64,000 nucleotides of DNA from an uncultured Gemmatimonadaceae bacterium (GCA_963790305.1 CAWBOC010000008.1:1-64000); one strand, 5' to 3'; shown: positions 7,246 through 63,549, counted from the stretch's first letter. Notes: generated by a model from the letters alone, not told the origin. Program-made: numbers and translations.

Positions 7246-8805
7246 ATGCTCCTCCGCAGCGTCGCCATCCTCTTCTGGCTCAGCGCCACGATTTCGCGAG
7301 CGGCATACGCTCAGAAGCTCGGCACGATCTCATTCCCAAACTCCGGTGCCGCCGCGGGCCAGGCGCCATTCAGTCGCGGCGTCCTGCTGCTTCACAGCTT
7401 TCAGTACGACGAAGCAGCCGTTGCATTTCGTGAGGCACAGAGCGCAGACCGCGATTTTGCCCTCGCGTACGCCGGGGAGGCGTTGACCTACACGCATCCC
7501 GTATGGAACGAACAGGACAGCTCCGCGGCGCGGGCAGTGCTCATGCGTCTCGCGCCGAGCGCGTCGGTGCGGCGCGAGAAAGCGAAAACGAGTCGCGAAA
7601 AGATGTACATGGACGCCGTCGAGGCATTGTACGGCTCGGGAACGAAGCCCAAACGGGATACGCTCTTTGCCGCCGCGATCGAGCGCATCGTGGCCGAGCA
7701 TCCGGAGGATGACGAGGCGAAGGTGTTTCTCGCGCTCGCGCTCCTCGGGCTCAATCAAGGCGAGCGCGACGTGCCGACCTACATACGCGCTGGCGCGATC
7801 GCCGAGGAGGTTCTCCGTCGGAATCCGGAGCATCCGGGAGCTGCCCATTTCGTCATTCACGCGTTCGACGACCCCGTTCATGCACCGTTAGGCCTCTGGG
7901 CCGCCCGCGCGTACTCCAGGATCGCGCCAGGAGCACTGCACGCGCAGCACATGACGACGCACATCTTCCTCGCGATGGGCATGTGGGACGATGTCGTCGC
8001 GCAAAATGTCATCGCGTCGGGACCTCAGCATGAGCGCTGGCGGGCGGGGCACGCCACTTCATGGCTCGGCTACGGATATCTCCAGCAGGCTCGCTTCGAT
8101 GAGGCGCGCAAGCATCTCCAGCACCTCCGGGCGAATGCCGGCGCCTCGATGCGCCCCGGGGAGAAGTTCCATCTTCCATGGATGCGAGCCGCCTACCTGA
8201 TCGAAAGCGAACGCTGGACGGATTCGGTTGCAGGCTGGTCCTTTGCGCCGATCGAGGCCCCGGCGCTGCGCGCCGTCGATGCCTTTGCGACGGGCTTCGC
8301 CGCACTCAGAGCGGGTGACCGCGCGCGTGCCGAACGAGTGGCCGCCGAGCTGACGCGCGAACGCACGACCGAGTCCGGCGGCTTCGGGCTGAGCAATCCA
8401 GCCGTGATTCGCATCTTTGCCGCCGAGATGCGTGCGGCCTTGCTCGCCGCTGACGGACGCACCGACGATGCGATCGCCTCCATCCGTGCTGCGACGCATA
8501 TGGAAGACTCGCTTCCGGTGGAGTTTGGACCGCCCGCGGTCGTGAAGCCAACGCACGAGCTTGCTGGCGAGATTCTCCTTGCGGCAGGTCGCTTTCCGGA
8601 AGCGCAGCGCGAGTTCACGCGGGCACTCGAGTTGGCACCAGGCCGGTCGAGGTCGCTACTTGGGCTTGCCCGAGCGGCGTCCCGCGCTGGGGATCAGGCG
8701 GTTGCCATGCGGGCCGCACGCGACCTGCTGCGCAACTGGCACTCCGCCGACAAGGGCCTGGTCGAGCGCGCCGATGTAGAGCGCCTCGTCGCCGAGCGCC
8801 AGTAA
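7246..8805 (+). CDS. Secreted tetratricopeptide-repeat protein
   Basis: Signal peptide; HPGAAHFVIHAFD, HAQHMTTHIF and C-terminal TPR-like helices. Confidence 0.8.
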   Translation: MLLRSVAILFWLSATISRAAYAQKLGTISFPNSGAAAGQAPFSRGVLLLHSFQYDEAAVAFREAQSADRDFALAYAGEALTYTHPVWNEQDSSAARAVLMRLAPSASVRREKAKTSREKMYMDAVEALYGSGTKPKRDTLFAAAIERIVAEHPEDDEAKVFLALALLGLNQGERDVPTYIRAGAIAEEVLRRNPEHPGAAHFVIHAFDDPVHAPLGLWAARAYSRIAPGALHAQHMTTHIFLAMGMWDDVVAQNVIASGPQHERWRAGHATSWLGYGYLQQARFDEARKHLQHLRANAGASMRPGEKFHLPWMRAAYLIESERWTDSVAGWSFAPIEAPALRAVDAFATGFAALRAGDRARAERVAAELTRERTTESGGFGLSNPAVIRIFAAEMRAALLAADGRTDDAIASIRAATHMEDSLPVEFGPPAVVKPTHELAGEILLAAGRFPEAQREFTRALELAPGRSRSLLGLARAASRAGDQAVAMRAARDLLRNWHSADKGLVERADVERLVAERQ

Positions 8806-8840
8806 GCCAGCGCCGACATCGCGCGCCCCGCCTCGCCACC

Positions 8841-10121
8841 ATGGAGAACAATCCGGGCGAAGCCTCGATCTACTGCTTCGGCGAGTACGAGCTCGACACG
8901 CGGCTGCACGAGCTTCGCCGCGCCCGCGAACGCCTGCACATCGAGCCTCAGGTATTCGACGTGCTGGCGTATCTGTTCGCGTGTCGTGACAGAGTGGTGA
9001 CGAAAGAGGAGCTCCTCGACCGTGTTTGGGGCCATCGGTACGTGGCACCGACCACGTTGAACAGCCGCATCAAGCACGCGCGTCAGGCGGTCGGCGACGA
9101 TGGCGCCACTCAGCGCGTGATCCGCACCATACACGGGCTCGGTTTCCGCGTCGTCGCGAGCGTCGAGGAGCGCACCGGCGCGCCGATCTCAGGAACACCC
9201 CCACTCCAGCAACGCATCCAGTTTTGCACCGCGGCCGACGGCGTGAACATCGCCTACGCGACGAGCGGCGCTGGCCCGCCGCTGGTCAAGCCAGCCAACT
9301 GGATGACGCATCTGGAGTACGACTGGGAGAGCCCGGTCTGGCGCCATTGGATGCGCGAGCTGTCGCGTGAGCGGACGCTGGTTCGCTATGACGAGAGGGG
9401 GTGCGGACTTTCCGACCGCGACGTCGATGACCTCTCCTTCGAGACGTGGGTGCGCGATCTCGAGTCCGTCGTCGACACAATGGGACTCGAACGGTTCCCA
9501 CTCCTCGGGATCTCGCAGGGATGTGCGGTCGCGATCACCTATGCCGTGCGCCACCCCGAGCGGGTCACGCAGCTCGTGCTCTACGGTGGCTTCGCGGAGG
9601 GCATGATCACGCGGGCGCGGACCCCGCGGGAGCTCGAGGAGAACACGACCGTGATGCGCGCCATCCCGCTCGGCTGGGGACACGACAACCCCGCGTTCCG
9701 CATGTTCTTCGCGGCGAGATTCCTCCCCGAGGGCACACCCGAGCAGTTGCGCTGGTTCAGCGAGCTGCAGCGGGTCACCACGTCGCCGGAGACAGGCGCC
9801 CGACTGCTCTCGACCTCGTCGACGATCGACGTGACCACGATCGCGCCCCAGGTGCGAGCTCCGACGCTCGTGCTCCACGCGACGGGCGATGCCGTCGCGC
9901 CCTTCGATCAAGGGCGCAAGGTCGCGTCGCTCATACCCGGCGCGCGTTTTGTCCCGCTCGAGGGCAAGAACCACATTCTGCTCGAGTCCGAGCCGGCGTG
10001 GACGCGCTTCGTCGACGAGGTAGGCCGTTTCCTGCGCAGCGGCGCCGACGCTCCGCTCACACCAGGATCGACATCACCGCCACGACGATCAGCGCGACGG
10101 CCCAAAGGACGTTCACGTTGA
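8841..10121 (+). CDS. Transcriptional regulator: OmpR/CadC-type winged helix fused to an alpha/beta hydrolase domain
   Basis: EPQVFDVLAYL...RTIHGLGFR wHTH; YDERGCG, GISQG, GKNH hydrolase motifs. Confidence 0.88.
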   Translation: MENNPGEASIYCFGEYELDTRLHELRRARERLHIEPQVFDVLAYLFACRDRVVTKEELLDRVWGHRYVAPTTLNSRIKHARQAVGDDGATQRVIRTIHGLGFRVVASVEERTGAPISGTPPLQQRIQFCTAADGVNIAYATSGAGPPLVKPANWMTHLEYDWESPVWRHWMRELSRERTLVRYDERGCGLSDRDVDDLSFETWVRDLESVVDTMGLERFPLLGISQGCAVAITYAVRHPERVTQLVLYGGFAEGMITRARTPRELEENTTVMRAIPLGWGHDNPAFRMFFAARFLPEGTPEQLRWFSELQRVTTSPETGARLLSTSSTIDVTTIAPQVRAPTLVLHATGDAVAPFDQGRKVASLIPGARFVPLEGKNHILLESEPAWTRFVDEVGRFLRSGADAPLTPGSTSPPRRSARRPKGRSR

Positions 10122-10720
10122 TCCACGCTCGGCGCAGGATGCGCAGTCCCACCTTCTCGTACACGACCACCGCGAGGGCAGCCGTCACCGCGAGGTAGCC
10201 GAGGGTGTGTATGAGCGCCGCCATCACACCGATCGGGTCCACGGCGTTGATTCCCGCCGTCACAGCTTGGTGGTGATGGAGCACGGCCGACGGCCGCGAC
10301 GCGGCAGCGCCGAACATGAACGGAAGCACCATGAGGCCGGCGCCGTGGACGGACGCCATGAGAAAGGACCAGGTAGCGAGCTCGCGTGCATTCACCCGCA
10401 TGCCGCCGAGCCTAACGTGGCGATGGCGGACGAGCCCATCGACGCCCACGGCAAGCAGAGCCGCGGCGACGATCCATCGCAGCCAGCGCATTCGGGAGCA
10501 TTTGTCCCAGCGCCATCGCGAGGAACACGGCCACGGCGACCGCGACGGCGTGACCGAGCGCGAGCGGACCGAGCGCGCGCCATACCGCGCGCCGGTCCCG
10601 CTCCTGCAGCCCCCGGCCCACCGCGAACAGCCACCCCATCGCGGGATTGATTCCGTGTACGGCGCCGAGGGCAAGCAGCGAGAGCCAGGGCAGCGACGAC
10701 CAGCCGGCGTCGGCCATCAT
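10057..10720 (-). CDS. Membrane protein coupled to the SBP56 gene (frameshift near 10490)
   Basis: ORFs 10412-10720 and 10057-10674 join; LGAVHGINPAMGW and SVHGAG His motifs; several TM helices; ATGA overlap with upstream gene. Confidence 0.75.
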
Positions 10721-12450: not shown

Positions 12451-12686
12451 GGTGTCTCCGGCCTGAACGCGCTCACGGCATGTCGCGATCGCGATGCCAG
12501 GAGTATTACAAGGCGCTGGCGCGACGGGAGGCGGCGGCGCAGAAGAAGTGAGATTCGGCACCGGGGGCCCGGTGCTCAACGGAAGGTTACGTTTTCTGTC
12601 ATTCCATCGCTGTACGCAGGGTTTCGGTTGGGAATACTTTGATAGGTGAGGGTTACCGTGCGCCGCGGGCGAGATCGCGACCAGCG

Positions 12687-12823
12687 GCATAACTAGCTGC
12701 TGCAACTGTCAGGCACGATGTCTAAGGAAGTCACCACAGTTCGTGTGCTTGAAGTGCAACAGCAAAGCGCGCTGTCGCGCGCTTTCAAGAACACCGCGTC
12801 CAGTTGAACAGTAGGCGTTATGC
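12687..12823 (+). mobile_element. attC site (137 bp)
   Basis: GCATAAC...GTTATGC complementary cores; L boxes CTGCTGCAACTG/CAGTTGAACAG with one extra base; internal hairpin. Confidence 0.85.
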
Positions 12824-12830
12824 CGACACC

Positions 12831-13223
12831 ATGATTCGACGCGGACTGTGGATTCTTAGCGTACGCATCGCGTCGCTTGGACTAGTAGGCGCCTGCGCCT
12901 TCTTCGCGGGCCCATGGCTTGCTGCGGGCCGCCTCGAGCGGGTCGATCCCGAAGCCCAGGCCAATGCCGCGATCGCGCGGGGCGACCTCCGCATCGTCGC
13001 CATCGACGGTCAGCTCCTCTACACTCCGGGCGCGGAGAGCCTGCAAGACGACGCCGTCTCGGGATTTTGCACCATTCGCCTGGTAGGCCCGCGCGGTGAT
13101 ATCATGCTCACGCAGTCGATGTGGCGTTGGGGTGGCACCATCCATTCGTACGCTCGGGCGTACAACCGCCGCCTTCTTGTGCGAGTCCCCCAGGACAGGC
13201 TTTGCCGCCTGCCGCATAACTAG
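12831..13223 (+). CDS. Hypothetical membrane-anchored protein (gene cassette)
   Basis: ATG 7 nt after the attC core; stop immediately after the next inverse core. Confidence 0.75.
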   Translation: MIRRGLWILSVRIASLGLVGACAFFAGPWLAAGRLERVDPEAQANAAIARGDLRIVAIDGQLLYTPGAESLQDDAVSGFCTIRLVGPRGDIMLTQSMWRWGGTIHSYARAYNRRLLVRVPQDRLCRLPHN

Positions 13224-13349
13224 CTGTTGCAACTGTCACGCGCGATGCCCAAGGTATCCATCACGTGTGATCCCCTTTAAGATCAAAAGCAAAGGCGGGC
13301 CGTTGGGCCCGCCTTCTAAAGCCGCGTGCAGTTGGGCGCGGCGTTATGC
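13214..13349 (+). mobile_element. attC site (136 bp)
   Basis: GCATAACTAGCTGTTGCAACTG...CAGTTGGGCGCGGCGTTATGC. Confidence 0.85.
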
Positions 13350-13415
13350 CGGCAACACGCTTCTCGAGGTGTAGGCTATTTGTGCTATAGCGTCATTCGT
13401 CGCTGGAGACTGAGT

Positions 13416-13865: not shown

Positions 13866-13899
13866 CATACCCGTCCCCCTCAGGACAGAGCGCCCTTCG

Positions 13900-14033
13900 G
13901 CATAACTAGCTGGTACAACTGGCAGGCGCGATGTCTATGGTAGCCATCGCGACTGACCCTCGAGGTGCAACGGCGAAGGCGGGCTAACGCCCGCCTTCTG
14001 ACAAGCCGCCTGCAGTTGAACGCGGCGTTAGGC
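13900..14033 (+). mobile_element. attC site (134 bp)
   Basis: GCATAACTAGCTGGTACAACTG...CAGTTGAACGCGGCGTTAGGC. Confidence 0.85.
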
Positions 14034-14060
14034 AGGCAAGCGGAGGCAAGTCATCGGACC

Positions 14061-15299: not shown

Positions 15300-15705
15300 A
15301 TGCGCCTCCATCGACTAGCTGGATTCCTCGTGCTCGGCGCTCTCGGCTCCTGCGGCTTCGTCACCGATGGCTGCAGCCTGCACATGGCCGTTGCCCGCCG
15401 CCCGCGCGATCGGGACCGTAACGTTGTCCGGGGGCGGACCAGCGGCAGGGGCCACCGTGGTCGCGTCCACTTGGCGAGTACCATGTGACCCGGTGCCGAG
15501 CCCGCTGTCTTACCGGAGCGAGACGACCACAGACGCTCAAGGCGCGTATCGACTCGTGTTCGGCGCTGCCGCCGAGGGACCTCAATGCGCCCGCCTCACG
15601 GCGCGACTTGGTGTACCGAGGTAAGTCGCGTCGTGACCGTAGAAGCCCGGCTGAGAGGGAAGCGGCTCCCTAGACAGCGTGCGTGTTGACCTAACGCTCC
15701 CCTGA
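15300..15705 (+). pseudogene. Frameshifted lipoprotein gene (gene cassette)
   Basis: Signal MRLHRLAGFLVLGALGSC; continues in other frames through TDAQGAYRL to LDSVRVDLTLP*. Confidence 0.55.
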
Positions 15706-18308: not shown

Positions 18309-20432
18309 TCAAGGCCCCTGGACGATCACGAACCGCTCCCCGTCGGGTGACACGTCGTACATGGTGTTGGGACCGACCTGATACGACGCCCGGAACAACA
18401 CCGTTCGCTTCAAGACCGCGGGCGGTGCCGCGCGGCCGGCCTTCCCGAGCTGCACCGCCACCAACGCCCCCTCGCTCCAGTAGTACAGCTCTCGACCATC
18501 CCGTCGCCAGACGGGATGCACGCCGCCGCTCGACGAGATGGATATTCGCTGTCGAGGTCGCGGGTAGGAATCGAGGTAGACTTCCGCCCGCCCCGACTCG
18601 TCGGATGTGTACGCGACCCAGCGTCCGTCGGGCGAGACGCGCGCGGCCGTCTCGTCCGCCCGCGTCGCAGCGTACGGCCACGCCGTCGATCCGTTCGCCG
18701 GCTGGACAAGGATGTCGTGCCCGTTGTCCGCGGTTTGCTCGGTGACGAGCAGCGCGCTGTTGTCGCGCACCCAGTCGCTCGCGAACTGGGTTCCTTCGCG
18801 TGCCGCGAGCACGCTCGTCCCGCCGCCGGTGGCTTTCTGCATCAGCAGGTCCTTCCCACCCGGAGCGCTCGCCGAGTAGGCGACCGTTGCGCCGTCCGCG
18901 CTCCACTGGGGGTCGTTGCTGTCGTTCTCGTCATCGGTGAGGCGGCGGGTCGTGCCTCGGTCGAGGACCGTCACCCAGAGATCGCTCGTGTTCCGACCGG
19001 CACCGAACGCGCCATATGCCACCATGCGCCCGTCAGGCGAAAAACGCGGCGTCCATGGCCGGTTCGCCGCGATCGTGCGTTGCGTACGACCGTCGCGGTC
19101 TACCACCGAGAGCGACATGGACTCTGTTGTTGCAGGAGCCGCCTCGGCGCCGGCAGTCCACGTCGAGCTCACTGCGCCCGCCGCGGCGCCGGCGCTGGCC
19201 CAGCGCTCGAGAAATGATGAGCGAGCCAGCGCCCAGCCGCCGACGACGCCGATCGCTACCATCGCGGCGGCGGCGTACATGGCTGCGCGTGCGGAAACCA
19301 TGCGCTTCGAACCGCCCGAGTCGGGTTTCGTGCCACCCCGCCGTGGCACCGCGAGCGCATCCGCGAATGCCGCCGCGCTGGGAAACCGGTCATCGGGGTG
19401 CTTCGCCAGTGCCCGCCACACGGCGGCATCGAGGAAGGAGGGGACGTCGGAGCGCCGTGTAGACAGCGCGACCGCCGGCTCGTGAATGACGCGCATCAGC
19501 ACGGCCTGCTTCGACTCCGCCGCGAACGGCGCTTCGCCCGCGATCATCTCATACAGCACCGCTCCGAGCGCATAGACGTCGGTGCGCGCGTCGACCGCGT
19601 GCTCCCCAGCCGCCTGTTCTGGCGCCATGTATTGCGGAGTGCCGAGCGAGATGCCCGTGCGCGTTAGGCGCTCTCCGCCCGCACGCTCGAGCGCGAGGGC
19701 AATGCCGAAGTCGGCGACCAGCGCGTGTCCGCTCTGCAGCAGGACGTTCTCCGGCTTCACGTCACGATGCACGACGCCATGGTGGTGTGCGTAGTCGAGC
19801 GCATCCGCCATCTCGCAGAAGAATTGCAGAGCGGTGTCCACGGGCAGGCGTCCCTCGCGCGCGAGCCGCGAGCGCAGCGTCTCGCCCTCGACGAAAGGCA
19901 TGACGTACCACAGCAGACCGTCTACGTTCCCCGAGTCGAACAGCGGGAGGATGTGCGGGTGCTGCAGCGACGCCGTGACACGGATCTCCTCGAGGAACCG
20001 CTCTGCGCCGACCGCGGCGGCGAGCTCCTCACGCAGCACCTTGATCGCAACGCGGCGGTCGTGCCGCACGTCTCGAGCGAGGTACACGGTGGCCATCCCG
20101 CCGTGGGCGAGCTCGCACTCGATCTCGTAACGGTCCGCGAGCGCATTCACGAGTCGCGCGACGAGTGGCGACGGCGCGCTCCGTCCCTGTAGTACCTCGG
20201 CGGCGGGGCGCTCGAGGAAGTCGTCGTCAGCGCGGTCATGCGCGTCGAGTAGTGACGCGACCTCACGCCGCAGCGCTTCGTCCTCGCCGCATGCGTGCGC
20301 GACGAACGCGGCCCGTCGCTCGGGCTCGCAGAACAGCGCGCCCCGGAGGACCGCGTCCACCTCGCGCCATCGTTCGGGCGTCATCGGCGAAGACTGACCG
20401 GTCGCCTCCGCCTGCTGCGCAGGGGTGGTCAT
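18309..20432 (-). CDS. Ser/Thr protein kinase with TM helix and C-terminal TolB-like (PD40) repeats
   Basis: VAIK, HRDVKPEN, DFG, GTPQYMAPE; SPDG repeats; ATGA overlap with the ECF gene. Confidence 0.92.
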   Translation of the reverse strand: MTTPAQQAEATGQSSPMTPERWREVDAVLRGALFCEPERRAAFVAHACGEDEALRREVASLLDAHDRADDDFLERPAAEVLQGRSAPSPLVARLVNALADRYEIECELAHGGMATVYLARDVRHDRRVAIKVLREELAAAVGAERFLEEIRVTASLQHPHILPLFDSGNVDGLLWYVMPFVEGETLRSRLAREGRLPVDTALQFFCEMADALDYAHHHGVVHRDVKPENVLLQSGHALVADFGIALALERAGGERLTRTGISLGTPQYMAPEQAAGEHAVDARTDVYALGAVLYEMIAGEAPFAAESKQAVLMRVIHEPAVALSTRRSDVPSFLDAAVWRALAKHPDDRFPSAAAFADALAVPRRGGTKPDSGGSKRMVSARAAMYAAAAMVAIGVVGGWALARSSFLERWASAGAAAGAVSSTWTAGAEAAPATTESMSLSVVDRDGRTQRTIAANRPWTPRFSPDGRMVAYGAFGAGRNTSDLWVTVLDRGTTRRLTDDENDSNDPQWSADGATVAYSASAPGGKDLLMQKATGGGTSVLAAREGTQFASDWVRDNSALLVTEQTADNGHDILVQPANGSTAWPYAATRADETAARVSPDGRWVAYTSDESGRAEVYLDSYPRPRQRISISSSGGVHPVWRRDGRELYYWSEGALVAVQLGKAGRAAPPAVLKRTVLFRASYQVGPNTMYDVSPDGERFVIVQGP

Positions 20433-21674: not shown

Positions 21675-22922
21675 TCACTCGTAGAGCAGATAGGGAGCGC
21701 GTCGCCGTTCGAATGCCTCCACCTCCGCGCGCCACGAGGCGACGATCTCGTCGGGCCGCCTGCCAGCGAGAATCATCTGCTTGAGCCGCGGCGTCGCCGT
21801 TAGGCGGTCGAGCACCGCATCGTTCCACACGATGCGGTCGGGGTGCAGCTGGTTCACGGCCCAGAGCATCGCGATGCCTGCGCGGTAGGGCTGGAAGACG
21901 TTCCGGTCGGTCACACGCAGCTGAATGCCGCGCACGCCCTCGCCGGCGAGCTCCGGCGGACGCCCGTGATAGGGCTTCTGCTCAGGCGTGAACTCCACCG
22001 GCTCGAACACCACGCCCGGCATTCCAAGCGTGTTGAGCAGCGTGGTGGCGCGGCGGTGATCCAGCCACGGCGCGCCGACATACTCGAAGGGATGATCGGT
22101 ACCACGTCCCTCGGAGAGATTCACCGCCTCGAACAGGCACGTGCCCGCGTACGCCAGGACCGAGCGAAGCGTGAGAAGATTCGGCGACGGCTGCCGCCAT
22201 GTCAGGCCCGTCTCGTCGAACCACATGCTGCGCCTCCAACCCGTCATCGGCACGACATGAAGCCGCGCCGTCATTCCACCGCGCAACAGCTTCTCGCCGT
22301 TGTAGAATCGCGCCAGCTCGCCCATGGTCATGCCGTGCAGCACTGGCACTGGCGCATAGGATCCGAAGCGGAACCGCGCCGACGAGTCCGTCACGAATCC
22401 ATCGGGCCGACGTCCCGTGATCGGATTCGGACGATCGAGCACTACCACCTCGATCCCCTGCTCCGCCGCCGCTTCCATCACGAAGCCGAGAATGTTGATG
22501 TGCTCGTAGAAGCGTGCGCCGACCTCCTGAATGTCGAAGACGATGACGTCGACACCCTCGAGCATCGGCGGCGCCGGTTTGTGCCGATCGCCGTAGAGAC
22601 TGTGCTTCGGAAGCTGCGTGACGCGGTCGATGGTCGACTCCGGATCACGTGGCACGGAGTAGTCGTTCGAGCGGATGTCGTACTCCATGCCGAAGAGGAC
22701 CGTCAGCTGCGCGTCACGATACCGATGGAGCGCGTCCGCCAGGTGAGTGCCATCGGCGAGGCGCCCACTGTGGTTCGAGACGAGCGCGATCTTCTTCCCG
22801 CGGATGAGGTGCGCGAACTCGCCGAAGAGGCGGTCGGCGCCGGCGACGACCGGTTGTGCCTCGCCGCGCACGGCAGCCAGCCAAAAGCACGCACCAAGAA
22901 GGAACGGTGTCACCAGTCTCAT
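21675..22922 (-). CDS. namZ: Exo-beta-N-acetylmuramidase NamZ family (DUF1343)
   Basis: FDIQEVGARFY, LDRPNP, HGMTMGELA, PSPN, SEGRGT. Confidence 0.88.
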   Translation of the reverse strand: MRLVTPFLLGACFWLAAVRGEAQPVVAGADRLFGEFAHLIRGKKIALVSNHSGRLADGTHLADALHRYRDAQLTVLFGMEYDIRSNDYSVPRDPESTIDRVTQLPKHSLYGDRHKPAPPMLEGVDVIVFDIQEVGARFYEHINILGFVMEAAAEQGIEVVVLDRPNPITGRRPDGFVTDSSARFRFGSYAPVPVLHGMTMGELARFYNGEKLLRGGMTARLHVVPMTGWRRSMWFDETGLTWRQPSPNLLTLRSVLAYAGTCLFEAVNLSEGRGTDHPFEYVGAPWLDHRRATTLLNTLGMPGVVFEPVEFTPEQKPYHGRPPELAGEGVRGIQLRVTDRNVFQPYRAGIAMLWAVNQLHPDRIVWNDAVLDRLTATPRLKQMILAGRRPDEIVASWRAEVEAFERRRAPYLLYE

Positions 22923-25905: not shown

Positions 25906-26439
25906 ATGAGATCTGCCAAGGCGAAGCCGAAGGCAAAGCGCCCGTCGCGCACAGGCAAGAAACGCAAGTCAGCCACCAAGTCCGCGAAGGCCAAGCCGGT
26001 CAAGGGGCGAAAGGGCGAGAAGGCCCCCGTCGTTCTCCTCTCGGGCGGCAACCCGCAGATCGCGAAGGCGGACGGCGACGCCCCGGTGCAGGCGTACATC
26101 GCGGCGATGCCGGGCTGGAAGCGCGACGTCGGGAAGCGCCTCGATGCGCTCATCGTGCGGAGCGTGCCTAACGTGCGCAAGGCCGTGAAGTGGAACTCGC
26201 CGCTGTATGGCATCGAAGGCCAGGGCTGGTTCCTCGGGTGGCACGTCTTCACCCACTACGTCAAGCTGACCTTCTTCCGCGGCACGTCACTGCAACCTCC
26301 CCCGCCCGGGCCCAGCAAGGACAAGAACACGCGCTACCTCGACATCCGCGAACGCGACGAACTCGACGAGGCCCAGCTGATGACGTGGGTGAAGCAGGCG
26401 GCAGCGATACCCGGCTGGATTCCTGGGCGACCGGAATAA
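25906..26439 (+). CDS. DUF1801 (YdhG-like) protein
   Basis: LLSGGNPQIAK, AVKWNSPLYG, KLTFFRG. Confidence 0.85.
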   Translation: MRSAKAKPKAKRPSRTGKKRKSATKSAKAKPVKGRKGEKAPVVLLSGGNPQIAKADGDAPVQAYIAAMPGWKRDVGKRLDALIVRSVPNVRKAVKWNSPLYGIEGQGWFLGWHVFTHYVKLTFFRGTSLQPPPPGPSKDKNTRYLDIRERDELDEAQLMTWVKQAAAIPGWIPGRPE

Positions 26440-52632: not shown

Positions 52633-54020
52633 AGCGGCTCACGCCCTTTTTCGCCTTCGCGACGCTCGCGCTCGCCGCGCTCCCCGCGCGCGCGCAGGCG
52701 CCACGCGAAGCACCGCCCGCACCGGGCGCGCCGAAAGACTTCACCCTTGCCGCGCTCCGCACGTTCGCGCTGCCTAACGGGCTCGAAGTCACCATGGCGC
52801 CGTACGGCAACACGCCCAAAGTCGCCGTCCGCCTCGTGATCCAGACCGGGAACGTCGATGAGACCGCCCAGACCACCTGGCTGGCCGACCTCACGCGCGA
52901 CCTGATGCTCGAGGGAACCACCACCCGCAGCTCGCAACAGATCGCCGAGGAAGCGGCGCAGTACGGGGGAGCCGTCGCGTTCAACGTCGGAATGAACGAA
53001 AGCTCTGTTGGCGCGGACGTGCTCTCGGAATTCGGCCCGAACATGGTGCGGCTCATTGCCGACATCGCACGGAACCCGAAATTCCCGGAGACCGAGCTCG
53101 CGCGCCTCAAGGCGAACCGCCTGCGTCAGATCACCGTGTCGAAGAGCCAGCAGCAGCAGCTCGCGAACGAGAAGTTCCTCGCCGTGCTCTACCCGAATCA
53201 TCCCTACGGGCGCCTCTTCCCCACCGAGTCGCAGGTCCAGGGCTACACGATCGACCAGGTGAAGGCGTTCCACGCCGCGAACTACGGCGCGCGGCGCTCC
53301 CAATTCTACGTCGTCGGCCGCTTCGACCCCGCCGCCATGGAGGCGGCAATTCGCCAGAGCCTCGGAGACTGGCAGCCAGGCACGGCGCCGGTGTTCAACG
53401 CTCCCGCTCCGAAGACGGCGCGCGTCATCCACGTCGTCGATCGGCCAGGCGCGGTGCAGAGCACGATCTACCTCGGCCTGCCCGTGGTCGATCCGTCACA
53501 CCCGGACTACGTCGCCCTCCGCGTCACCGACGCGATCCTCGGCGGCTCCTTCGGCTCGCGCATCACCAGCAACATTCGCGAGCAGAAGGGCTACACGTAC
53601 TCGCCGTTCAGCACGATCAACCCGTTTCTCAAGAACGCCTATTGGGCCGAGATCGCCGACGTGACGACGAACGTGACGGGCCCATCGCTGAAGGAGATCT
53701 TCTTCGAGATCGATCGCCTGCAGTCCGAGGCCCCTTCGGCACAGGAGCTTCAGTCGATTCAGCGATATCTGGCGGGGATCTTCGTACTTCAGAACTCGTC
53801 GCGGAACGGCATCATCAACCAGCTCCAGTTCACCGAGCTGCACGGCCTCGGCGAGAACTACCTGCGCGACCTGGTGCGGAAGATCTACGCGATAACACCA
53901 GCCGACGTGCAGCGCATCGCGCGCGAGTACCTGAAGGACGACACGATGACGATCGTCATCGCCGGCGACCGTCGCGTTATCGAAGAGCAGTTGAAGCCCT
54001 TCGGGTCCATCCTGCAGTAA
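52629..54020 (+). CDS. M16 family peptidase, non-catalytic partner subunit
   Basis: LPNGL, HPYG, GGSFGSRITSNIREQKGYTY; lacks HxxEH; ATGA overlap. Confidence 0.9.
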   Translation: MKRLTPFFAFATLALAALPARAQAPREAPPAPGAPKDFTLAALRTFALPNGLEVTMAPYGNTPKVAVRLVIQTGNVDETAQTTWLADLTRDLMLEGTTTRSSQQIAEEAAQYGGAVAFNVGMNESSVGADVLSEFGPNMVRLIADIARNPKFPETELARLKANRLRQITVSKSQQQQLANEKFLAVLYPNHPYGRLFPTESQVQGYTIDQVKAFHAANYGARRSQFYVVGRFDPAAMEAAIRQSLGDWQPGTAPVFNAPAPKTARVIHVVDRPGAVQSTIYLGLPVVDPSHPDYVALRVTDAILGGSFGSRITSNIREQKGYTYSPFSTINPFLKNAYWAEIADVTTNVTGPSLKEIFFEIDRLQSEAPSAQELQSIQRYLAGIFVLQNSSRNGIINQLQFTELHGLGENYLRDLVRKIYAITPADVQRIAREYLKDDTMTIVIAGDRRVIEEQLKPFGSILQ

Positions 54021-54023
54021 GGC

Positions 54024-56493: not shown

Positions 56494-56704
56494 TAGACTC
56501 GTGGTGCGACCGGCCATCGTTAGGCACCCCCCGACTCCCAGCGGAGGTTCCCACCGTACCATCTACGGCCGCTCCGATGGTTAAGCCTCTCAGGATGCCC
56601 AGAACACCCGTTCGACGGCCCCTCTTCGGGCATTTTGACATGCTCCCTCCGAGCCCCCCGGCCGGGTACATTCAAGGGCCTTGTCGCACCCGCCATCCCT
56701 CCCC

Positions 56705-57691: not shown

Positions 57692-59404
57692 CTGATCGGC
57701 CCGCAATGCGCCGGCGCGATTTCCTCGCGGCGGCCGGGGCCGCATTGGCATCACTCGGCTGCGGGGGCCGCGTTGGGCTTCCCGGACGCTCGCGATGGGA
57801 TCTCGTCGTTCGAAACGGCACCATCATCGACGGATCGGGCGGCGCACCCTTCGAAGGTGACGTCGCGATCGCCGACGGCCGCATCGCTGCCATCGGTCGA
57901 TCGCTGAGTGGGAGCGCAGGGGAGGAGATCGATGCGCGCGGGCTCGCCGTCGCCCCAGGCTTCATCGACATTCACTCGCACGCCGATGGAACGCTGTTCG
58001 ACGATCCGCGCGCCGAGTCGGTGATCCGCCAGGGCGTGACCACGGTGATCGTCGGGCAGGACGGAGGCTCCCGTGGCCCGTCCCGCGACGACCCCAGCGC
58101 TCGCACGCAGGTTCGGCGCTCGCTCCGCGCCCACGGTCCCTTTTCGTCGTTAGGCGATTTCCTCGCCGCGGTCGACGCGCTGCCCCCCGCCGTGAACGTC
58201 GCGTCGATGGTGGGACTGGGGACGGTGCGCGGGATCGTCGTCGGCAACGACGACCGGCCGGCGACTCCCGCCGAGCTCGCGCGGATGCGGTCGCTGGTGA
58301 GCGCGGCCATCGAGCATGGTGCATGCGGCGCCTCGTCGGGGCTCGAGTACGTGCCCGGCGCGTTCGCGTCGCAGCAAGAGCTCGCCGCGGTGTGCGGGCC
58401 GCTCGCCGCGGCGAGACTCCCGTACGCCACGCACATGCGCAACGAGGACGACCGCCTGCTCGACTCGCTGGACGAGTCCATTGCGGTTGCGCGGGCAGCC
58501 GGCTGTCCACTTCAGGTCTCGCACCTCAAGACGCAGGGACCGCGGAACTGGCCAAAGATCGACGCCGCCCTCGACCGCCTCGAGAAGGCGCGCGCCTCCG
58601 GACTCGATGTGGCGTTCGACCGGTATCCCTACGTCGCGTACCAGACAGGGCTCACCAATCTCTTTCCGGCATGGAGCCGCGATGGAGGGACGCAGCGTTT
58701 CCTCGCCCGGCTTCGTGACTCGGCGACCGCCACCCGCATCCGCGATGAAGCGCTGGCGAAGGTCGAGCTCATCGGCGGCTGGGACAACGTCCAGATCACG
58801 TCGGTGAGCAACGACGCCGATCGCGCGGCTGAAGGCCAGCGGCTCGGCGCCTGGGCCAAGGCGTTCTCGCGCCGATCCCTATCAAGCGGCGGTTGGATTG
58901 CTCGAGCGCAGTGGCGGAGACGTGGGCATGGTCGGGTTCGCGATGAGCGAGGACAACATCGCGCGCTTCCTCGCGCACCCGCTCGGGATGGTGTGCAGCG
59001 ATGGCGGCGCATTCGCGACCGAGGGGCCGGCGCGTCGCGGCCATCCTCACCCGCGCTCACTCGGCTCCTTCCCGCGGGTGTTGGGACACTACGTCCGCGA
59101 GCGACGCGCGCTGCCTCTCGAGGACGCCGTGCGGAAGATGAGCGCCTTTCCGGCGTCGCGAGTGCGACTCACCGATCGCGGGCATGCTGCGACAGGGGCT
59201 TGCGGCGGACGTCGTCGTGTTCGACCCGGCGACAGTCACCGACCGCGCGACCTTCGCCGAGCCGTTTCGTTATGCGGAGGGAATCCGGGTCGTCATCGTC
59301 AACGGAGTGACCGCCCTGCGCGACGGCGAACGCGCCGAGCGACGGGCGGGCCGCGGCTCTACGGCCGGTACAGCAAGGGCGCTAAGGGCGTCGAGCGCCC
59401 CTAG
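57688..59404 (+). CDS. N-acyl-D-amino-acid deacylase family, Tat-exported (frameshifts near 58870 and 59185; end uncertain)
   Basis: RRRDFL signal; PGFIDIHSH, HMRNE, SHLK, HPRSLGSFPR, ADVVVFDP. Confidence 0.85.
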
Positions 59405-59426
59405 CGCCCCTAGCGCCCCTAGCGCC
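59375..59426. repeat. Short palindrome of 9-nt repeats (AAGGGCGCT / TAGCGCCCC)
   Basis: Two left units, three to four right units, at a convergent gene junction. Confidence 0.75.
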
Positions 59427-60030
59427 TCTGCTCTTCGCTGTCCTTCATCTCGACATAGCCCGCGAAGCGAGCCGATACGGTGCTCCGCGCGACGCCGTTC
59501 AGGAGCTGGTAGTCGAAGTCGCCGGTGACGATCGACGCCTGACGAACCTGAATGAGATCGCCAGCACGCCAGGTGTCGGCCTGCGGCCGGTGCGGCAGGT
59601 AGATCTCCCACATCGTCCCGTCGGCCAGCATGATGAAGGTCGATCCATCCATCGACCGCAGCATCTGCGCGCCATTCGGCAGCTTGTGTGGAAGCCACGG
59701 CTTCCCCGTTAGGCTCGGCTGCTCGGCCTGGCGCATGGGCGCCTGACGAGATGGCTCCGCGCGCGGCGCGAGATCGGCGCGCGGGGAATCGGTCTCGCGG
59801 GCGGGCAAGCGGTCGATGCGACGTGCGACCGCGGCCACGGTTCCGGTGTAGCGGGCGAGCCAGCGCTCGAGACTCTGGCGCTGCGCGACGCTGAGGTTGG
59901 CGACCCCCGTCGCCATCTGATCCTGTGCCGACATGACCTCATCGAGCTTGACGTCAGATGCCTGCGCGAGCAGCGCGCATGGCATCGACACGAGAGCTAC
60001 GAGGAGCGCCGACAGAATACGAGTGCGCAT
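59419..60030 (-). CDS. Hypothetical secreted protein
   Basis: AGGAGG RBS; signal peptide MRTRILSALLVAL; last 203 aa of ORF 59419-61920. Confidence 0.75.
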   Translation of the reverse strand: MRTRILSALLVALVSMPCALLAQASDVKLDEVMSAQDQMATGVANLSVAQRQSLERWLARYTGTVAAVARRIDRLPARETDSPRADLAPRAEPSRQAPMRQAEQPSLTGKPWLPHKLPNGAQMLRSMDGSTFIMLADGTMWEIYLPHRPQADTWRAGDLIQVRQASIVTGDFDYQLLNGVARSTVSARFAGYVEMKDSEEQRR

Positions 60031-60087
60031 AACGTCCTCCTCTGGTTGCTGAGGAGAACATGGAGAAGTGTGCCATGGGAAAGCAAT

Positions 60088-60220
60088 GAGGATTGCGGAT
60101 TGCGGAATGCGGAACCTAAGTCCGAGCGCGTATCCGCTGCTCAGCAATTGGGCAGCGCATGACCTTGCTCGGACTTCTTGACGTGCATATCCGCGCTCCG
60201 CATTCCGCGATTCCGCATTC
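60088..60220. repeat. Palindrome of 7-nt repeats with structured spacer
   Basis: GAGGATTGCGGATTGCGGAATGCGGAA ... TCCGCATTCCGCGATTCCGCATTC; inner AAGTCCGAGC/GCTCGGACTT stem. Confidence 0.8.
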
Positions 60221-60221
60221 G

Positions 60222-62215
60222 CTAAGGCGCTTCCCACGTGATTGTTCCGCCGATCCATATCCGGAAACGCGAGCTCCGGATCGATCTCCACCGCGCGCAC
60301 GGTGGCGGCGCTTGCGATGCGGGCCGTCTGCGTGCGGGCGCCGGCCAGCCAGGGGTCGACCGGAAGCTCCAGCCGTTCCGTGCGGCCGTCGGTGCGCGTG
60401 ATGGCGAGCCGGACGGGCATTGGCGCGAGACCGCGGTCCTCGATCGTCACCAGCAGCGTGCCGCCCTCCTCGCGCGCGCCGCTCACCGCCTGGTCGAGCG
60501 TCCAGGTCTCGAACCACCACGTGGTCCAGAACCAGTCGAGGTCGCGGCCCGCGACGTCCTCGACCGTATTCCAGAAGTCGTACGGTGTCGGATGCTTGTT
60601 GATCCACCTCCGCCCGTACTCGCGGTAGGCGCGCAGGAAGAGGTCGTCGCCGAGGAGAGCCCGAAGAGAGCGAAGGTTGATCGCCATCTTGTCGTAGCTG
60701 GCGATGCCGAACGCCGGCGATCCAATGGGATACAGGTCGCCGTGTCGCATGAGCTCGACCTCGGTGCCGGCGCGCGCGAGGCTCAGGTAGTTATCCCGGG
60801 ACAGCCGCTCGCGATCGTAGCCGGGGAAGAATTCCTGCATCCCCTGCGCCTGATTGAAGCGCGTGAGCCCTTCGTCCTGCCAGGAGTACCGCTTCTCGTC
60901 CGAGCCGACCTGCATCGGAAACCACATGTGCGCGATCTCGTGCACCGTCACCGAATACAGGGCGAGCGTGTCGCGCCGCCCGCCGATGCACGTCATCATC
61001 GGATACTCCATCCCGCTGCAGGAGACGACGCCATCGACCGCCGTCATGTGCGGGTACGGATAGGGCCACAGGTAGCGGGACAGAAACTCGATGGAGTGCT
61101 GCGCATAACGAGCCGACTGGTCCCATGCCCATGCTCGGCGCTGCGGACGCCAGAATGTATGAATGGCGGCGGTGTCCGGGCGCCCGTCACCGGTCGCGTC
61201 CCCCGCCACGGCGACGGTGGCGTCCCACAGGTACTTGTCCGAGGTGCCGAAGGCGAAATCGCGAACGTTGGTCGCGTGGAAGCGCCAGGTGAGCTTGCCA
61301 TCCCGCCCGCGCGGCGTCGCCTTCCCCGCGCCACGATCCGCCTCGGCGACGACATGCGTGATGTCGCGTGATCGACGGGCCGAATCGAGCCGGGCGCGCG
61401 TCTGCGCGCTCAGTACCTCGGTGGCGTTGGTCAGCTCTCCGGTCGCGGCGACGAGCCATCCTTCAGGGACAGTGATCGAGACGTCGTAATCGCCGTATCC
61501 CATGTAGAACTCGGCGGTTCCCATGTACGGGTCGGTCTGCCAGCGGCGAGCGACATCGTCGTAGACGGCGAACTGCGGATACCAGTACGCGATGTACGCA
61601 ATCTCTCCATCGTCGCCCCCACGCGGCGCGCCGTCCGGCGGCACGGTGTACTGCCATTCGACATCGAGCTGCACGGTGGCGCCTGGCAGAATGCGAGCCG
61701 GGGGCCGCACGCGAAGGATCGTCGAGGAAACCTCGTATCCCGTGGCGGTGTCGTTAGGTGCTTCCCCGACCGGCCGGCCGTCGATGGCAACGCGCCGCAG
61801 CTCGACGCCGCCAGTCACCGGCACCGCTTCGTTTCGAATCGCGTCGGGAGCGAAGAGATTCGCGTAGAGATGGAGAAAGACGTTTCGGAGCGTGTCCGGC
61901 GAGCGATTGGTGTATCGCATCGTGCCGCGACCGGTCAGACGCTTGGTCGCGGGGTCGTACGTCGCCTCGAGCCGATAGGTGGAATACTGCTGCCAGTAGT
62001 TCGGCCCCGGCCGCCCCGTTCGGGTTCGCGTTCCACGCTCGACCGCGCGGGCGAAGTCACTGGTCTCGAAAACCGGGTACGGACGCGGTCGCCCTGGCGC
62101 CGCGGCGGCCGCACCGCGGATGCGCTACCGGTGGTCGCTCGGCCGTCTGCGGCTTGGTGGCGCAACGCAGGCGAGCCAACAACGCCACGGCCATCCCGCA
62201 ATCCGAAATCCGCAT
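60222..62215 (-). CDS. M1 family aminopeptidase (frameshifts near 62125 and 60240)
   Basis: PGPNYWQQ, GMEYP, HEIAH, WQDEG, YDK. Confidence 0.85.
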
Positions 62216-62682: not shown

Positions 62683-62695
62683 GGCTACCTCGACT

Positions 62696-63346
62696 TCAGG
62701 TCGTCGAGGTCGTCAAGGGTGTCGAGGTGATCGAGGAGCAGGCGACGACGTTCCCTCGATCACCTCGACGACCTCGAGCACCCTCGACCACTCTTGCCTT
62801 CTTCCAGTACTCCGGAACGAGGAAGGGCGCCAACGCATACGTAATCAGCGCCTCGTACGCACGCTGCCGGTCGATGAGGCCGAGGGTGAGCAAACCGACG
62901 GCGCCCTGCGCCTGCTTCACGTTCTGCGTTCCGGCCACGCGATCCATCGCGTGGCCGAGCTCGAGGCCGCCGCGCACCAGCTCCGCGACGACCGGCGGGA
63001 GAGGCATGGCAAGCGAGCCTCCTCGTCCCTCGCGATCGCGGCCGTCGACGACGACGGCCCACGCGCAGGTGCGCAGGCCGTCGTCCTCTTCGACCACTCC
63101 GCCCTCGAGCCCGATCCCGAGGTCGGCGCCAAGCGATTCGCGAGCGGCGACCGCGCGAGAGCGGGCGCCGCGGATCGTCTCGTCATCACCCCACGGCTGG
63201 TCGCGCACCGTCGACGGTACCGCGATGCCTTCGACCCGCGCCGCAGGCGTCACCCGCCCGATCACGGCGCGCGCGGCGCCGATCTTCACCGGATTGGTCG
63301 ATCCGACGGCGACGAGGTGGACGCCGGGGAGGAGGTCGGAGGTCAT
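62696..63346 (-). CDS. yjjX: Inosine/xanthosine triphosphatase (DUF84)
   Basis: VGSTNPVK, QPWG..ETIRGA..RA, GLEGG, ELG, GAVGLLT. Confidence 0.88.
   Translation of the reverse strand: MTSDLLPGVHLVAVGSTNPVKIGAARAVIGRVTPAARVEGIAVPSTVRDQPWGDDETIRGARSRAVAARESLGADLGIGLEGGVVEEDDGLRTCAWAVVVDGRDREGRGGSLAMPLPPVVAELVRGGLELGHAMDRVAGTQNVKQAQGAVGLLTLGLIDRQRAYEALITYALAPFLVPEYWKKARVVEGARGRRGDRGNVVACSSITSTPLTTSTT
62697..62793. repeat. Palindrome of 9-nt tandem repeats, TCGAGGTNR family, copy C
   Basis: CAGGTCGTCGAGGTCGTCAAGGGTGTCGAGGTGATCGAGG-AGCAGGCGACGACGTT-CCCTCGATCACCTCGACGACCTCG. Confidence 0.85.
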
Positions 63347-63549
63347 ATGCCGCGGAATGTCGTCGATCGGTCGTCCGTCGTCCAGCGCACCGAGGGAATC
63401 GCGAAGCCTGGCGAGCCTCCGGGGTGCCTAACGACGGCTCCGGATCGCCGGGTGACGAGGGTCACGTCGCGCGCGTCGAGCCCGGATTTTGGCCGCTTGA
63501 TTCGCTCGACCGACCGGGATATGCTTTGTCCCCCGCGCGAAATTACTTC

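Follow-up and report, generated by a model that had tools for sequence, protein, structure and literature searches.

Results

The window, the whole 64,000-nucleotide stretch analysed here, carries 17 exact copies of the octamer GCCTAACG (hereafter the word), eight on the plus strand and nine on the minus strand, together with variants of it and integron attC sites (Table 1). By our own gene calling, 14 of the copies lie within called genes, where they are read in four phases (five TTA-GGC, five CTA-ACG, two CCT-AAC and two GTT-AGG); the other three are the copy at 14026, which sits at the R' end of an attC site, and those at 10410 and 56518, which are intergenic or uncalled. An exact-match check recovered every one of the 17 octamers listed in a sequence-only reading of this DNA, as well as its four additional heptamers at 15690, 33473, 37330 and 61752, and found a fifth at 40260. 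A looser reading of the word is [G/A/c]C[C/A]TAAC[G/A].

Table 1. Copies of the word, its variants and integron attC sites in the window
Feature	Position	Strand	Context
Word copy	7886..7893	-	In gene 7246-8805 (+), CCG-TTA-GGC (P-L-G)
Word copy	10410..10417	+	Intergenic or uncalled
Word copy	14026..14033	-	R' core (CGTTAGGC) of attC 13894-14039
Word copy	19662..19669	-	In gene 18309-20432 (-), CGC-CTA-ACG (R-L-T)
Word copy	21798..21805	-	In gene 21675-22871 (-), CGC-CTA-ACG
Word copy	26166..26173	+	In gene 25906-26439 (+), GTG-CCT-AAC-GTG (V-P-N-V)
Word copy	27364..27371	+	In gene 27324-27995 (+), AGC-CTA-ACG
Word copy	33891..33898	+	In gene 33369-34784 (-), CCG-TTA-GGC
Word copy	35784..35791	-	In gene 35617-36555 (+), GGC-GTT-AGG-CGA
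Word copy	36077..36084	+	In gene 35617-36555 (+), CGC-CTA-ACG; 293 bp from the copy at 35784
Word copy	38330..38337	-	In gene 38110-38628 (+), GCG-TTA-GGC
Word copy	42760..42767	+	In gene 41665-43158 (-), CCG-TTA-GGC
Word copy	52772..52779	+	In gene 52629-54020 (+), CTG-CCT-AAC-GGG
Word copy	56518..56525	-	Intergenic, divergent genes on either side
Word copy	58148..58155	-	In gene 57706-59310 (+), TCG-TTA-GGC
Word copy	59707..59714	-	In gene 59419-61920 (-), AGC-CTA-ACG
Word copy	63426..63433	+	In gene 63343-63843 (-), GTC-GTT-AGG-CAC
Tolerated variant ACCTAACG (A at position 1)	15689..15696	+	
Variant	33473..33480	-	CGTTAGGG on + (= CCCTAACG)
Variant	37330..37337	-	CGTTAGGT on + (= ACCTAACG)
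Variant	40259..40266	-	TGTTAGGC on + (= GCCTAACA)
Variant	61752..61759	-	CGTTAGGT on + (= ACCTAACG)
Integron attC site	12681..12829	+	R'' GCATAAC, R' CGTTATGC; related to, but distinct from, the dispersed copies
Integron attC site	13208..13355	+	R'' GCATAAC, R' CGTTATGC
Integron attC site	13894..14039	+	R'' GCATAAC, R' CGTTAGGC; holds the word copy 14026..14033

Dinucleotide shuffling of the window leads to an expectation of 1.35 copies (sd 1.19, maximum 5), and 17 was reached in 0 of 100 shuffles. Nor is the enrichment confined to the window, as the whole source genome (4.31 Mb; its genus is called g1 below) holds 855 copies, 436 on one strand and 419 on the other. The word is the top-ranked 8-mer of this genome at Markov orders 2 and 3, with observed/expected ratios (O/E) of 21 and 19, and the enrichment is kept under a codon-shuffled null, with 690 copies within genes against 40.6 +/- 6.7 after synonymous-codon shuffling, a 17-fold excess. 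The sequence-only reading had named loss of the signal under a higher-order Markov null as a refutation, and formally that loss occurs, with an O/E of 1.14 at order 5 and 0.97 at order 6. It is produced by the null itself and refutes nothing, because at these orders the expectation is computed from parts of the word that are in turn mostly made up of full copies (CCTAAC 1547, CCTAACG 1229, GCCTAAC 1105 and full word 855 in the genome). The order 5 and 6 values are what could be cited for a compositional or protein-coding artefact, the chance of which we consider close to nil; it is rejected by the codon-shuffle result and by the 23 of 41 relatives that have a similar composition and hold just 5-65 copies, and copies in four reading frames plus intergenic DNA also speak against it. 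The over-representation of the word is thereby confirmed.

The proteins of the source genome permit 8042 synonymous word sites, of which 690 are occupied (22% of P-N, 10% of TTA-GGC, 7.8% of CTA-ACG and 2.7% of GTT-AGG sites), and use of the word peaks at the permitted sites of lowest codon cost. A balance of the same kind, between a DNA-level push and codon selection, is known for the USS. As many as 31% of all TTA codons of the genome fall inside the word, and the use of several frames and rare codons bears out the earlier proposal that the signal acts at the DNA level. Orientation is independent of GC skew (163 forward and 174 reverse in bins with skew >0, 264 and 234 in bins with skew <0; p = 0.2), in agreement with the claimed absence of Chi- or KOPS-like polarity. 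We looked for conservation of the flanks and for a positional preference along genes, and found neither for the copies of this genome; the density is 2.7-fold higher between convergent genes (0.52/kb) than in coding DNA (0.19/kb). Seven variants of the word are enriched, the second most enriched being GCATAACG, and ACCTAACG is enriched 9.6-fold across the genome. Depletion is seen for some sequences that differ from the word by one letter, with O/E 0.2-0.5 for changes at positions 2, 6 and 7.

Copies avoid one another in genus g1 at distances below about 600 bp. The source genome has 11 spacings shorter than 300 bp against 49.5 +/- 6.7 expected (minimum 30 in 1000 simulations) and 46 shorter than 600 bp against 96 expected, and in a control set of 60 8-mers with similar counts none has a short-spacing ratio as low as the word's 0.22 (minimum 0.49, median 1.09). 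The variants GCATAACG, ACCTAACG and GCCTAACA avoid canonical copies as well (ratios 0.41-0.47 within 500 bp), and the seven enriched variants pooled occur near canonical copies 94 times against 169 +/- 12 expected. Since variants and canonical copies avoid one another, a single reader seems to recognise both, with one copy in a given region apparently sufficing. The same trend is seen in genomes G003 and G004, and no avoidance was found in the very dense G045, where the spacings of 100 sites in 81 kb follow an exponential distribution. A 54-kb core region has zero copies, and opposite-strand pairs less than 300 bp apart number five in the source genome.

The sites are conserved above background and are turned over by point substitution. 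G004 retains 31 of 44 sites of the source genome (background 8-column identity 0.289) and G003 27 of 54 (background 0.168), and where a site was lost, point substitution has left a GC-rich synonym or a tolerated variant. Local compensatory turnover (4/13 in G004, p = 0.03; 2/27 in G003, p = 0.87) is not reproducible.

The occurrence of enrichment in Gemmatimonadota is patchy: in our first sample it is found in 18 of the 41 relatives, with densities up to 1.25/kb, and in the phylum sample in 16 of 301 genomes. Four Verrucomicrobiota MAGs (mostly Chthoniobacterales) carry 0.6-1.4 copies per kb. Counts within a single genus range from 66 to about 4000, and G297 is non-enriched, whereas each of its two sampled congeners has about 4000 copies. 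The word is also found in a phage contig with genes for terminase, portal, head protein, holin and repressor (19 copies in 15.8 kb, 1.2 per kb) and in two further viral contigs (0.5-0.8 per kb). The patchy, dosage-like distribution fits a reader that can be gained and lost. Literature searches found no paper on the word.

The source genome has 38 attC matches, and the copy at 14026 is the only one of the 855 that lies inside such a site. Its own attC sites mostly have CGTTATGC or CGTTCTGC as R', and the variant GCATAACG equals their main R'. In relatives the word matches the attC R' core and the base preceding it letter for letter; G027 has 23 attC sites in 20 kb with R'' GCCTAAC(A) and R' CGTTAGGC. 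The resemblance to the integron core GTTRRRY/RYYYAAC noticed earlier amounts to identity with R' and R'' of G027, and also with the R'' of attC(aadB), given as GCCTAAC in an excerpt of PMC12901181. The attC architecture (an imperfect inverted repeat R''-L''...L'-R', in arrays) is absent around the dispersed copies, which have no partner arm and unrelated flanks.

Discussion

The best explanation, which we offer tentatively and as possible rather than probable, is that the word could tag DNA as self throughout the genome, as DNA uptake sequences do, and be used in uptake or in transfer. The resemblance to uptake sequences that the sequence-only reading pointed out is borne out. Like the DUS of Neisseriaceae (receptor ComP) and the USS of Pasteurellaceae, the word is short and asymmetric, occurs in hundreds to thousands of copies equally on both strands, is mostly genic and placed at low-cost codons, has enriched one-off variants and is common to related genera. 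USS spacing is more even than random, as is that of the word in genus g1, though not in the dense G045. The density differs, about 1/kb for DUS and USS against 0.2/kb for the word in genus g1. Inverted pairs forming terminators are common among DUS and USS but few here, no ComP-family protein was found, and unlike these sequences the word spans two phyla and phage and equals the attC core of integrons.

According to this proposal, a putative protein would bind the double-stranded word, probably within a pathway that imports DNA or passes it from cell to cell. Because they are bound by such a protein, word-carrying fragments would enter cells, or be passed on, more often, and homologous recombination with them would make copies multiply in the population. 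Losses would come from codon and protein constraints, and the density would reflect the balance of the two. Two points of this scheme we infer, namely a role of the reader in uptake or transfer and a molecular drive behind the accumulation.

In favour of the proposal we count the size and DNA-level nature of the signal, its strand symmetry, the avoidance among copies, the maintenance of sites despite turnover, the higher density between convergent genes and the patchy distribution. Import machinery is encoded as well: the source genome has ComEC and a PilQ-like secretin, and its congeners have ComEA (HHH_3), the copy of the source genome being interrupted by a contig end. All three occur equally in enriched and non-enriched genomes, including G297, and gene content therefore gives no link between enrichment and competence. 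ComP_DUS, the Neisseria receptor family, has no match in the genus g1 genomes, G016, G012 or G040. We know of no natural transformation in these lineages, and a literature search found no paper tying them to uptake sequences. The dense G045 without avoidance, the irreproducible compensatory turnover and the few inverted pairs count against an uptake-type self-tag, an uptake bias would account for the phage contig only if it is a long-resident temperate phage, and the exact integron-core match is left unexplained by it.

The sequence-only reading had advised looking for genes whose presence follows the enrichment. Among the candidates that we tested (Vsr, four methyltransferase families, RecC, extra FtsK gamma domains, a Ddb-like locus and ComP) none does. 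Among other readings, the word might be an intracellular self-tag, Chi-like without polarity, that spares DNA from a nuclease or defence system able to read it; host, plasmid and phage DNA would therefore all be under selection to carry it. The densities in the phage and viral contigs argue for this, as does the spacing of one copy every few kb. E. coli Chi has a density similar to the 0.2/kb of genus g1, and Chi (GCTGGTGG) and KOPS/SRS are likewise asymmetric 8-mers and possible self markers. All known Chi sites are polar, however, whereas the word shows no replication polarity and no orientation bias by GC skew. Our search for a Chi-reading enzyme, which covered RecC, had a match in 1 of 41 relatives, and densities above 1/kb are far beyond a Chi-type need, so that we regard such a tag as rather unlikely. 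KOPS, SRS and TRS are set apart by the same lack of polarity, and no enriched genome has an extra FtsK gamma domain (at most one per genome, in 34 of 41, irrespective of enrichment). It is unlikely, too, that an abundant DNA-binding protein of chromosome structure or regulation occupies the word, with sites selected in place. The mutual avoidance of copies and tolerated variants, site conservation at 2-3 times background and the PWM-like tolerance of an asymmetric 8-bp site are what one would expect of such a protein, but 30-50% of positions differ between congeners, which is a fast turnover, and the count range within one genus, the same word in two phyla, the mostly genic sites without preference along the gene and the copy-free 54-kb core region all disagree with this reading.

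Another reading, modelled on proposals made for HIP1 and very-short-patch repair, is a mutational drive linked to methylation or repair, in which near-cognates are repaired towards the word. It agrees with the depleted one-off neighbours, and it would convert phage DNA too during replication in the cell. HIP1 of cyanobacteria (GCGATCGC), the function of which is still debated, is likewise a hyper-abundant genic octamer conserved beyond background, but it is palindromic and linked to methyltransferases, whereas the word is asymmetric and its enrichment is followed by none of the methyltransferase families tested; neither the HIP1-like signature nor the methyltransferase tie of the sequence-only reading finds support. 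PF00145 (C5) occurs in 3, PF01555 in 16 and PF02384 in 15 of 41 relatives, none of them was found in the source genome, and the D12 class is missing from G016 and G045, the two densest Gemmatimonadaceae genomes tested. Vsr occurs in 3 of 41, all non-enriched, and mutual avoidance is not predicted by a site-by-site drive, which makes this reading very unlikely.

The letters of the word suggest that it may be read by an integron integrase or a relative, as an attG-type or secondary site or a double-stranded IntI binding site. The identity with the attC R' core, the preceding base and the G027 cassettes, the R'' of attC(aadB), the rank of GCATAACG among the variants and the abundance of integrons in both enriched phyla all favour this, and cassette insertion at genomic attG sites is cited in excerpts of PMC12901181 and PMC12614218. 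Against it, IntI does not track enrichment (above cut-off in 12/18 enriched and 16/23 non-enriched relatives), which lends no support to the idea of integrase secondary sites; G016, the densest of the 41 relatives, has it only as frameshifted pieces and none was found in G042. The R' sequences of the source genome mostly differ from the word, and unlike attC (R' GTTAGGC, R'' GCCTAAC) and attG the dispersed copies are solitary, have no hairpin partner and lie inside conserved genes, where insertion would be harmful. We can name no way in which IntI would make its own sites, and consider its involvement quite improbable.

Conclusions

The tentatively favoured self-tag and the integron likeness could meet in one reader, a DNA-import or transfer receptor tuned to the conserved attC R' core, although we regard this as a speculative idea that is improbable in itself. 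If it were true, the cells would favour gene cassettes in what they capture from environmental DNA, and the thousands of solitary genic copies would have arisen as a by-product when this bias acted on DNA from cells like themselves. Many integrons have the attC core in common, and Gemmatimonadaceae and Chthoniobacterales, two unrelated integron-rich soil lineages, could therefore have come to the same word independently or by exchange of the receptor.

Enrichment at the DNA level

The octamer GCCTAACG (reverse complement CGTTAGGC) is enriched beyond the window, throughout the source genome G000 (GCA_963790305.1; 4.31 Mb in 13 contigs, 66% GC; the window corresponds to C8:1-64000), where we count 855 copies, 436 on one strand and 419 on the other, at about 0.2 per kb and on every contig. 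All 17 copies that the sequence-only reading had listed for the window are exact and lie where it placed them, 8 forward and 9 reverse, compared with a mean of 1.35 in dinucleotide-preserving shuffles (the largest value was 5, and none of 100 shuffles reached 17). The four additional 7-mers that it named are present, along with a fifth one at 40260. The 25 bases on each side of the window copies are unrelated, so the word is solitary and not a piece of a longer repeat. It had also been claimed that the copies are mostly genic and in mixed frames, and this holds: 14 of the 17 are in called genes and use four reading phases (five xCG-TTA-GGC, five xGC-CTA-ACG, two CCT-AAC and two GTT-AGG). The gene calls are from our own caller, which gave 3847 genes and 85% coding DNA for G000.

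Markov models of order 2 and 3 predict 39.9 and 44.3 copies in G000 (observed/expected, O/E, 21 and 19), and under both orders GCCTAACG is by far the top 8-mer. Codon shuffling, which had been suggested as a check, leaves 40.6 ± 6.7 copies (at most 51 in 20 shuffles) against 690 observed in genes, an O/E of 17. The sequence-only reading had held that disappearance of the excess under a higher-order null would speak against a signal. The excess is indeed gone at order 5 (750.0 expected, O/E 1.14) and order 6 (877.9 expected, O/E 0.97), but we do not regard this as a refutation, because those nulls derive from sub-words that are themselves largely made of the word (CCTAAC occurs 1547 times, CCTAACG 1229, GCCTAAC 1105 and the full word 855 times). 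The result only says that both end positions add independently to the CCTAAC core. Three further words over-represented in G000 come from tandem arrays: (CCGCATT)n, (GGGGTCA/GGAGTCA)n and (TAGAGGCGC)n, the last with a 9-mer unit, with roughly 140-250 word copies each.

All copies in genes are at places where the protein permits the word synonymously, and 690 of the 8042 such places (8.6%) are used. The use drops with rising codon cost, from 22% for P-N over 10% for TTA-GGC and 7.8% for CTA-ACG to 2.7% for GTT-AGG, and the word accounts for 31% of the TTA codons of G000. The signal is genome-wide and lies at the level of the DNA. Some variation is tolerated among the one-off neighbours in G000: position 1 has an O/E of 21 for G, 9.6 for A, 5.9 for C and 2.0 for T, position 3 of 21 for C and 6.9 for A, and position 8 of 21 for G, 9.3 for A, 3.9 for C and 3.8 for T, while positions 2, 4, 5, 6 and 7 tolerate no substitution. 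The best spelling of the word is therefore [G/A/c]C[C/A]TAAC[G/A].

Placement, spacing and turnover

The strand balance in the window had been taken to argue against a Chi- or KOPS-like polarity, and the whole genome agrees. Bins of positive GC skew hold 163 forward and 174 reverse copies and bins of negative skew 264 and 234, so orientation has no relation to local skew (Fisher p = 0.2), which argues against a signal of the Chi or KOPS type; on contig C5, where the skew switches clearly, the copies are strand-balanced on either side. Genic copies are sense in 294 cases and antisense in 394, and are evenly distributed along the gene length. Their density is 0.19 per kb in coding DNA, 0.25 between tandem genes, 0.19 between divergent genes and 0.52 between convergent genes.

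In the genus of G000, copies of the word avoid each other. Spacings below 300 bp number 11 in G000 against 49.5 ± 6.7 expected (minimum 30 in 1000 simulations), those below 600 bp 46 against 96, and those below 1000 bp 108 against 154. The ratio for the shortest class, 0.22, can be compared with 0.49-3.26 (median 1.09) for 60 control 8-mers of similar count, and no orientation class stands out among the close pairs. The enriched variants take part in this: GCATAACG, ACCTAACG and GCCTAACA occur within 500 bp of canonical copies at ratios of 0.44, 0.47 and 0.41, and the seven enriched variants pooled do so 94 times against 169 ± 12 expected. The abundant but non-enriched neighbours GCCGAACG, GCCTGACG and GCCCAACG show no avoidance (ratios 0.92-1.04); two rarer neighbours, GCCTTACG (0.49) and GCCTCACG (0.69), are likewise low. 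The congeners G003 and G004 (400 kb each) have the same trend, not independently of G000. In the much denser G045, of the same family (1.28 per kb), the first 100 sites fit an exponential and there is no mutual avoidance.

Individual sites are gained and lost between congeners. Over 297 kb aligned with G004 at 84% identity, 31 of 44 sites of G000 are retained, as are 31 of 51 sites of G004 in G000 (background identity over eight columns 0.289); over 282 kb aligned with G003 at 77% identity the figures are 27 of 54 and 27 of 56 (background 0.168). Where a site is missing in one genome the partner differs by a point substitution, with a single indel case, and typically has a GC-rich synonym (GCCTGACG, GCCGAACG or GCCGAGCG) or a tolerated variant (ACCTAACG six times). 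Compensatory relocation within 700 bp was found for 4 of 13 sites with G004 (p = 0.03) and 2 of 27 with G003 (p = 0.87), and we do not claim it.

Codon-atypical genes (the lowest decile) have 0.127 copies per kb, compared with 0.18-0.21 in the other classes. The largest word-free stretch of G000 (54 kb, C6:288265-342699, with five one-off variants inside) turns out not to be foreign. The core housekeeping genes in it include those for RNase E/G, RecQ, an RpoD-like sigma factor, methylmalonyl-CoA mutase, aspartyl-tRNA synthetase, PanB and PanC, its central 20 kb are syntenic in congeners at 78-85% identity, and the congeners carry 2-3 copies per 20 kb there. Judged from gene content and synteny, the stretch is vertically inherited; it is native yet word-free, and absence of the word is therefore no proof of recent acquisition.

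Distribution among bacteria and phages

Among 41 relatives, 18 have 173-6360 copies and 23 have 5-65. All nine genomes of the genus of G000 are enriched (382-1006 copies), and the highest number belongs to G016 (1.25 per kb). Of 301 genomes sampled evenly across the phylum, 16 have at least 150 copies, namely 11 of 70 in family f1 and all five of genus g72 in family f2; none of the 103 sampled genomes of families f4-f12 reaches that number. These tallies take in one genome marked unpublished (G015), on which no claim depends alone. Within genus g44, G245 and G301 have 3896 and 4141 copies and G297 only 66; no other comparison that we saw is as sharp for tracing the gene responsible for the word.

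When one genome per species was scanned for pairs of copies 40-70 bp apart, many of the records that came up, besides Gemmatimonadaceae, were titled Chthoniobacterales, Spartobacteria or Verrucomicrobiae. Four such genomes have 2254, 4562, 2494 and 2918 copies, strand-balanced and at 0.6-1.4 per kb, and one further Gemmatimonadaceae genome has 7821. Many Veillonella or Veillonellaceae records also contain such a pair (L027, L030, L035, L042, L054, L065, L073, L075, L079, L085, L096, L101), probably as a specific repeated element rather than through genome-wide enrichment. The seven soil-metagenome runs listed, all in the form of contigs, each contain 0.05-0.13 of the sampled words; no RNA data set was among the listed runs. 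Three viral contigs are dense in the word: there are 19 copies in the 15.8 kb of L217 (13 of these on a single strand), 13 in the 16.8 kb of L214 and 9 in the 17.9 kb of L205. With genes for a large terminase, portal, major head protein, holin and a repressor-type regulator, L217 is a real phage and probably a temperate one.

Integrons and the search for a reader

The sequence-only reading had pointed to the integron core site, and the word has the same letters as the R' and R'' cores; on this spelling it is the classical attC core. PMC12901181 gives GCCTAAC as the R'' of attC(aadB). The agreement in letters is genuine, and chance is an unlikely explanation. In the non-enriched relatives the few copies are clustered on one strand about 500-600 bp apart; one cluster, on contig C95 of G027, consists of 23 attC sites in 20 kb with R'' GCCTAAC(A) and R' CGTTAGGC. 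G000 has a complete chromosomal integron, with integrase and cassettes in the same direction and R' cores that are mostly CGTTATGC or CGTTCTGC. The window has a cassette cluster of its own, with attC sites of about 140-150 bp (located with an nhmmer profile) and small ORFs between them; it is poorly conserved in congeners, whose arrays match the attC units only.

Locations of integron, word and competence-related features in G000
Feature	Location	Remarks
Integron integrase	C9:694984-695919	449 bits against TIGR02249
Complete chromosomal integron	C9:694984-722335	About 30 attC sites after the integrase, at about 696.6-722 kb, same strand
Cassette cluster	Window 5975-16000 (about 5.9-16 kb)	No integrase
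attC sites of the window cluster	Window 12681-12829, 13208-13355, 13894-14039	
Partial attC units of the window cluster	Window, near 5978, 6450, 6948, 15729	
Word copy	Window 14026	R' end of an integron attC site
Word copies	Window 10410 and 56518	Intergenic or uncalled
D12-class gene (one)	C10:191812-192570	
PilQ-like secretin genes (two)	C3:186339-187694, C11:41993-43348	Near-identical scores, near contig ends
ComEA-like HHH_3 fragment	C11:5-103	Truncated by the start of C11

No gene family that we tested follows the enrichment. A tie to a methyltransferase, once suggested, gets no support from the families tested: PF00145 (C5) was found in 3 of the 41 genomes, PF01555 in 16 and PF02384 in 15, with none of the three matching at E <= 1e-10 in G000 or in seven of its eight congeners, G003 alone having PF01555 and PF02384, and PF02086 (D12) occurs in G000 and G004 and in neither G016 nor G045. 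Vsr is present in 3 of 41 genomes, non-enriched in every case, RecC in one, and FtsK gamma in 34, never more than once per genome and without tracking the word. A locus for an LTD or Ddb-like lipoprotein was rejected as a tracker: it is found in 10 of 41 genomes, which are seven of the nine in the genus, none of the nine other enriched ones and three non-enriched ones. ComP_DUS had no match in the genus, G016, G012 or G040. A PilQ-like secretin, ComEC and ComEA are found in enriched and non-enriched genomes alike, and all three in G245, G301 and G297. Part of contig C11 may be a second copy of the end of C3, or a competence or pilus region may be broken in the assembly.

Interpretation

We tentatively suggest, at somewhat less than even odds, that the word is an uptake-sequence-like self-tag, which biased DNA import or transfer together with recombination would maintain. 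What leads us there is the push at DNA level against codon preference, the strand symmetry, the tolerated variants, the maintenance with turnover, the apparent sufficiency of one copy per region and a distribution that can be gained and lost. Against it stand the families tested, which contain no receptor, and the competence genes, which do not discriminate. A self-tag of this kind is also harder to square with a phage so rich in the word and with sites spaced at random where density is very high. USS spacing, Chi polarity and HIP1 are the known systems behind our comparisons.

The rivals are an apolar self-tag that works inside the cell, a site for a nucleoid protein, a repair drive and an integrase-related site. 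That copies avoid each other suggests a function, or a drive, for which one copy per region suffices; a mutational cause acting site by site would not predict it. An integrase-related site would account for the attC spelling and for the second most enriched variant being the R' core of G000 itself; genomic insertion sites, attG, are reportedly the subject of Loot et al. 2024, and their consensus could bear on this rival. An integrase above the cut-off is, however, found in 12 of the 18 enriched and 16 of the 23 non-enriched relatives, a distribution that lends no support to the integrase secondary sites suggested earlier, and attC sites of G000 hold only 1 of the 855 copies of GCCTAACG (and 13 of the 253 of GCATAACG). 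Of five dense genomes four have an integrase and G042 has none, and G016 has frameshifted pieces only. The presence of an integrase does not explain the abundance of the word.

To our knowledge, experiments have established sequence-specific self-tags in no more than two families of bacteria, both of them host-associated. Our literature search found no work treating GCCTAACG as a genome-wide signal (among the matches listed there were only primers and unrelated items), and none linking uptake sequences to these taxa. The candidate tag occurs in two abundant soil phyla and is spelled exactly like the integron recombination core. For practical purposes the word is a strong marker of lineage in binning and in gauging the residence time of DNA in these hosts. 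If the self-tag reading is true, it would be a third case and a way into the gene flow of abundant but barely cultured organisms; the word would be a sequence handle to fish out its reader, and could link DNA import with cassette capture.
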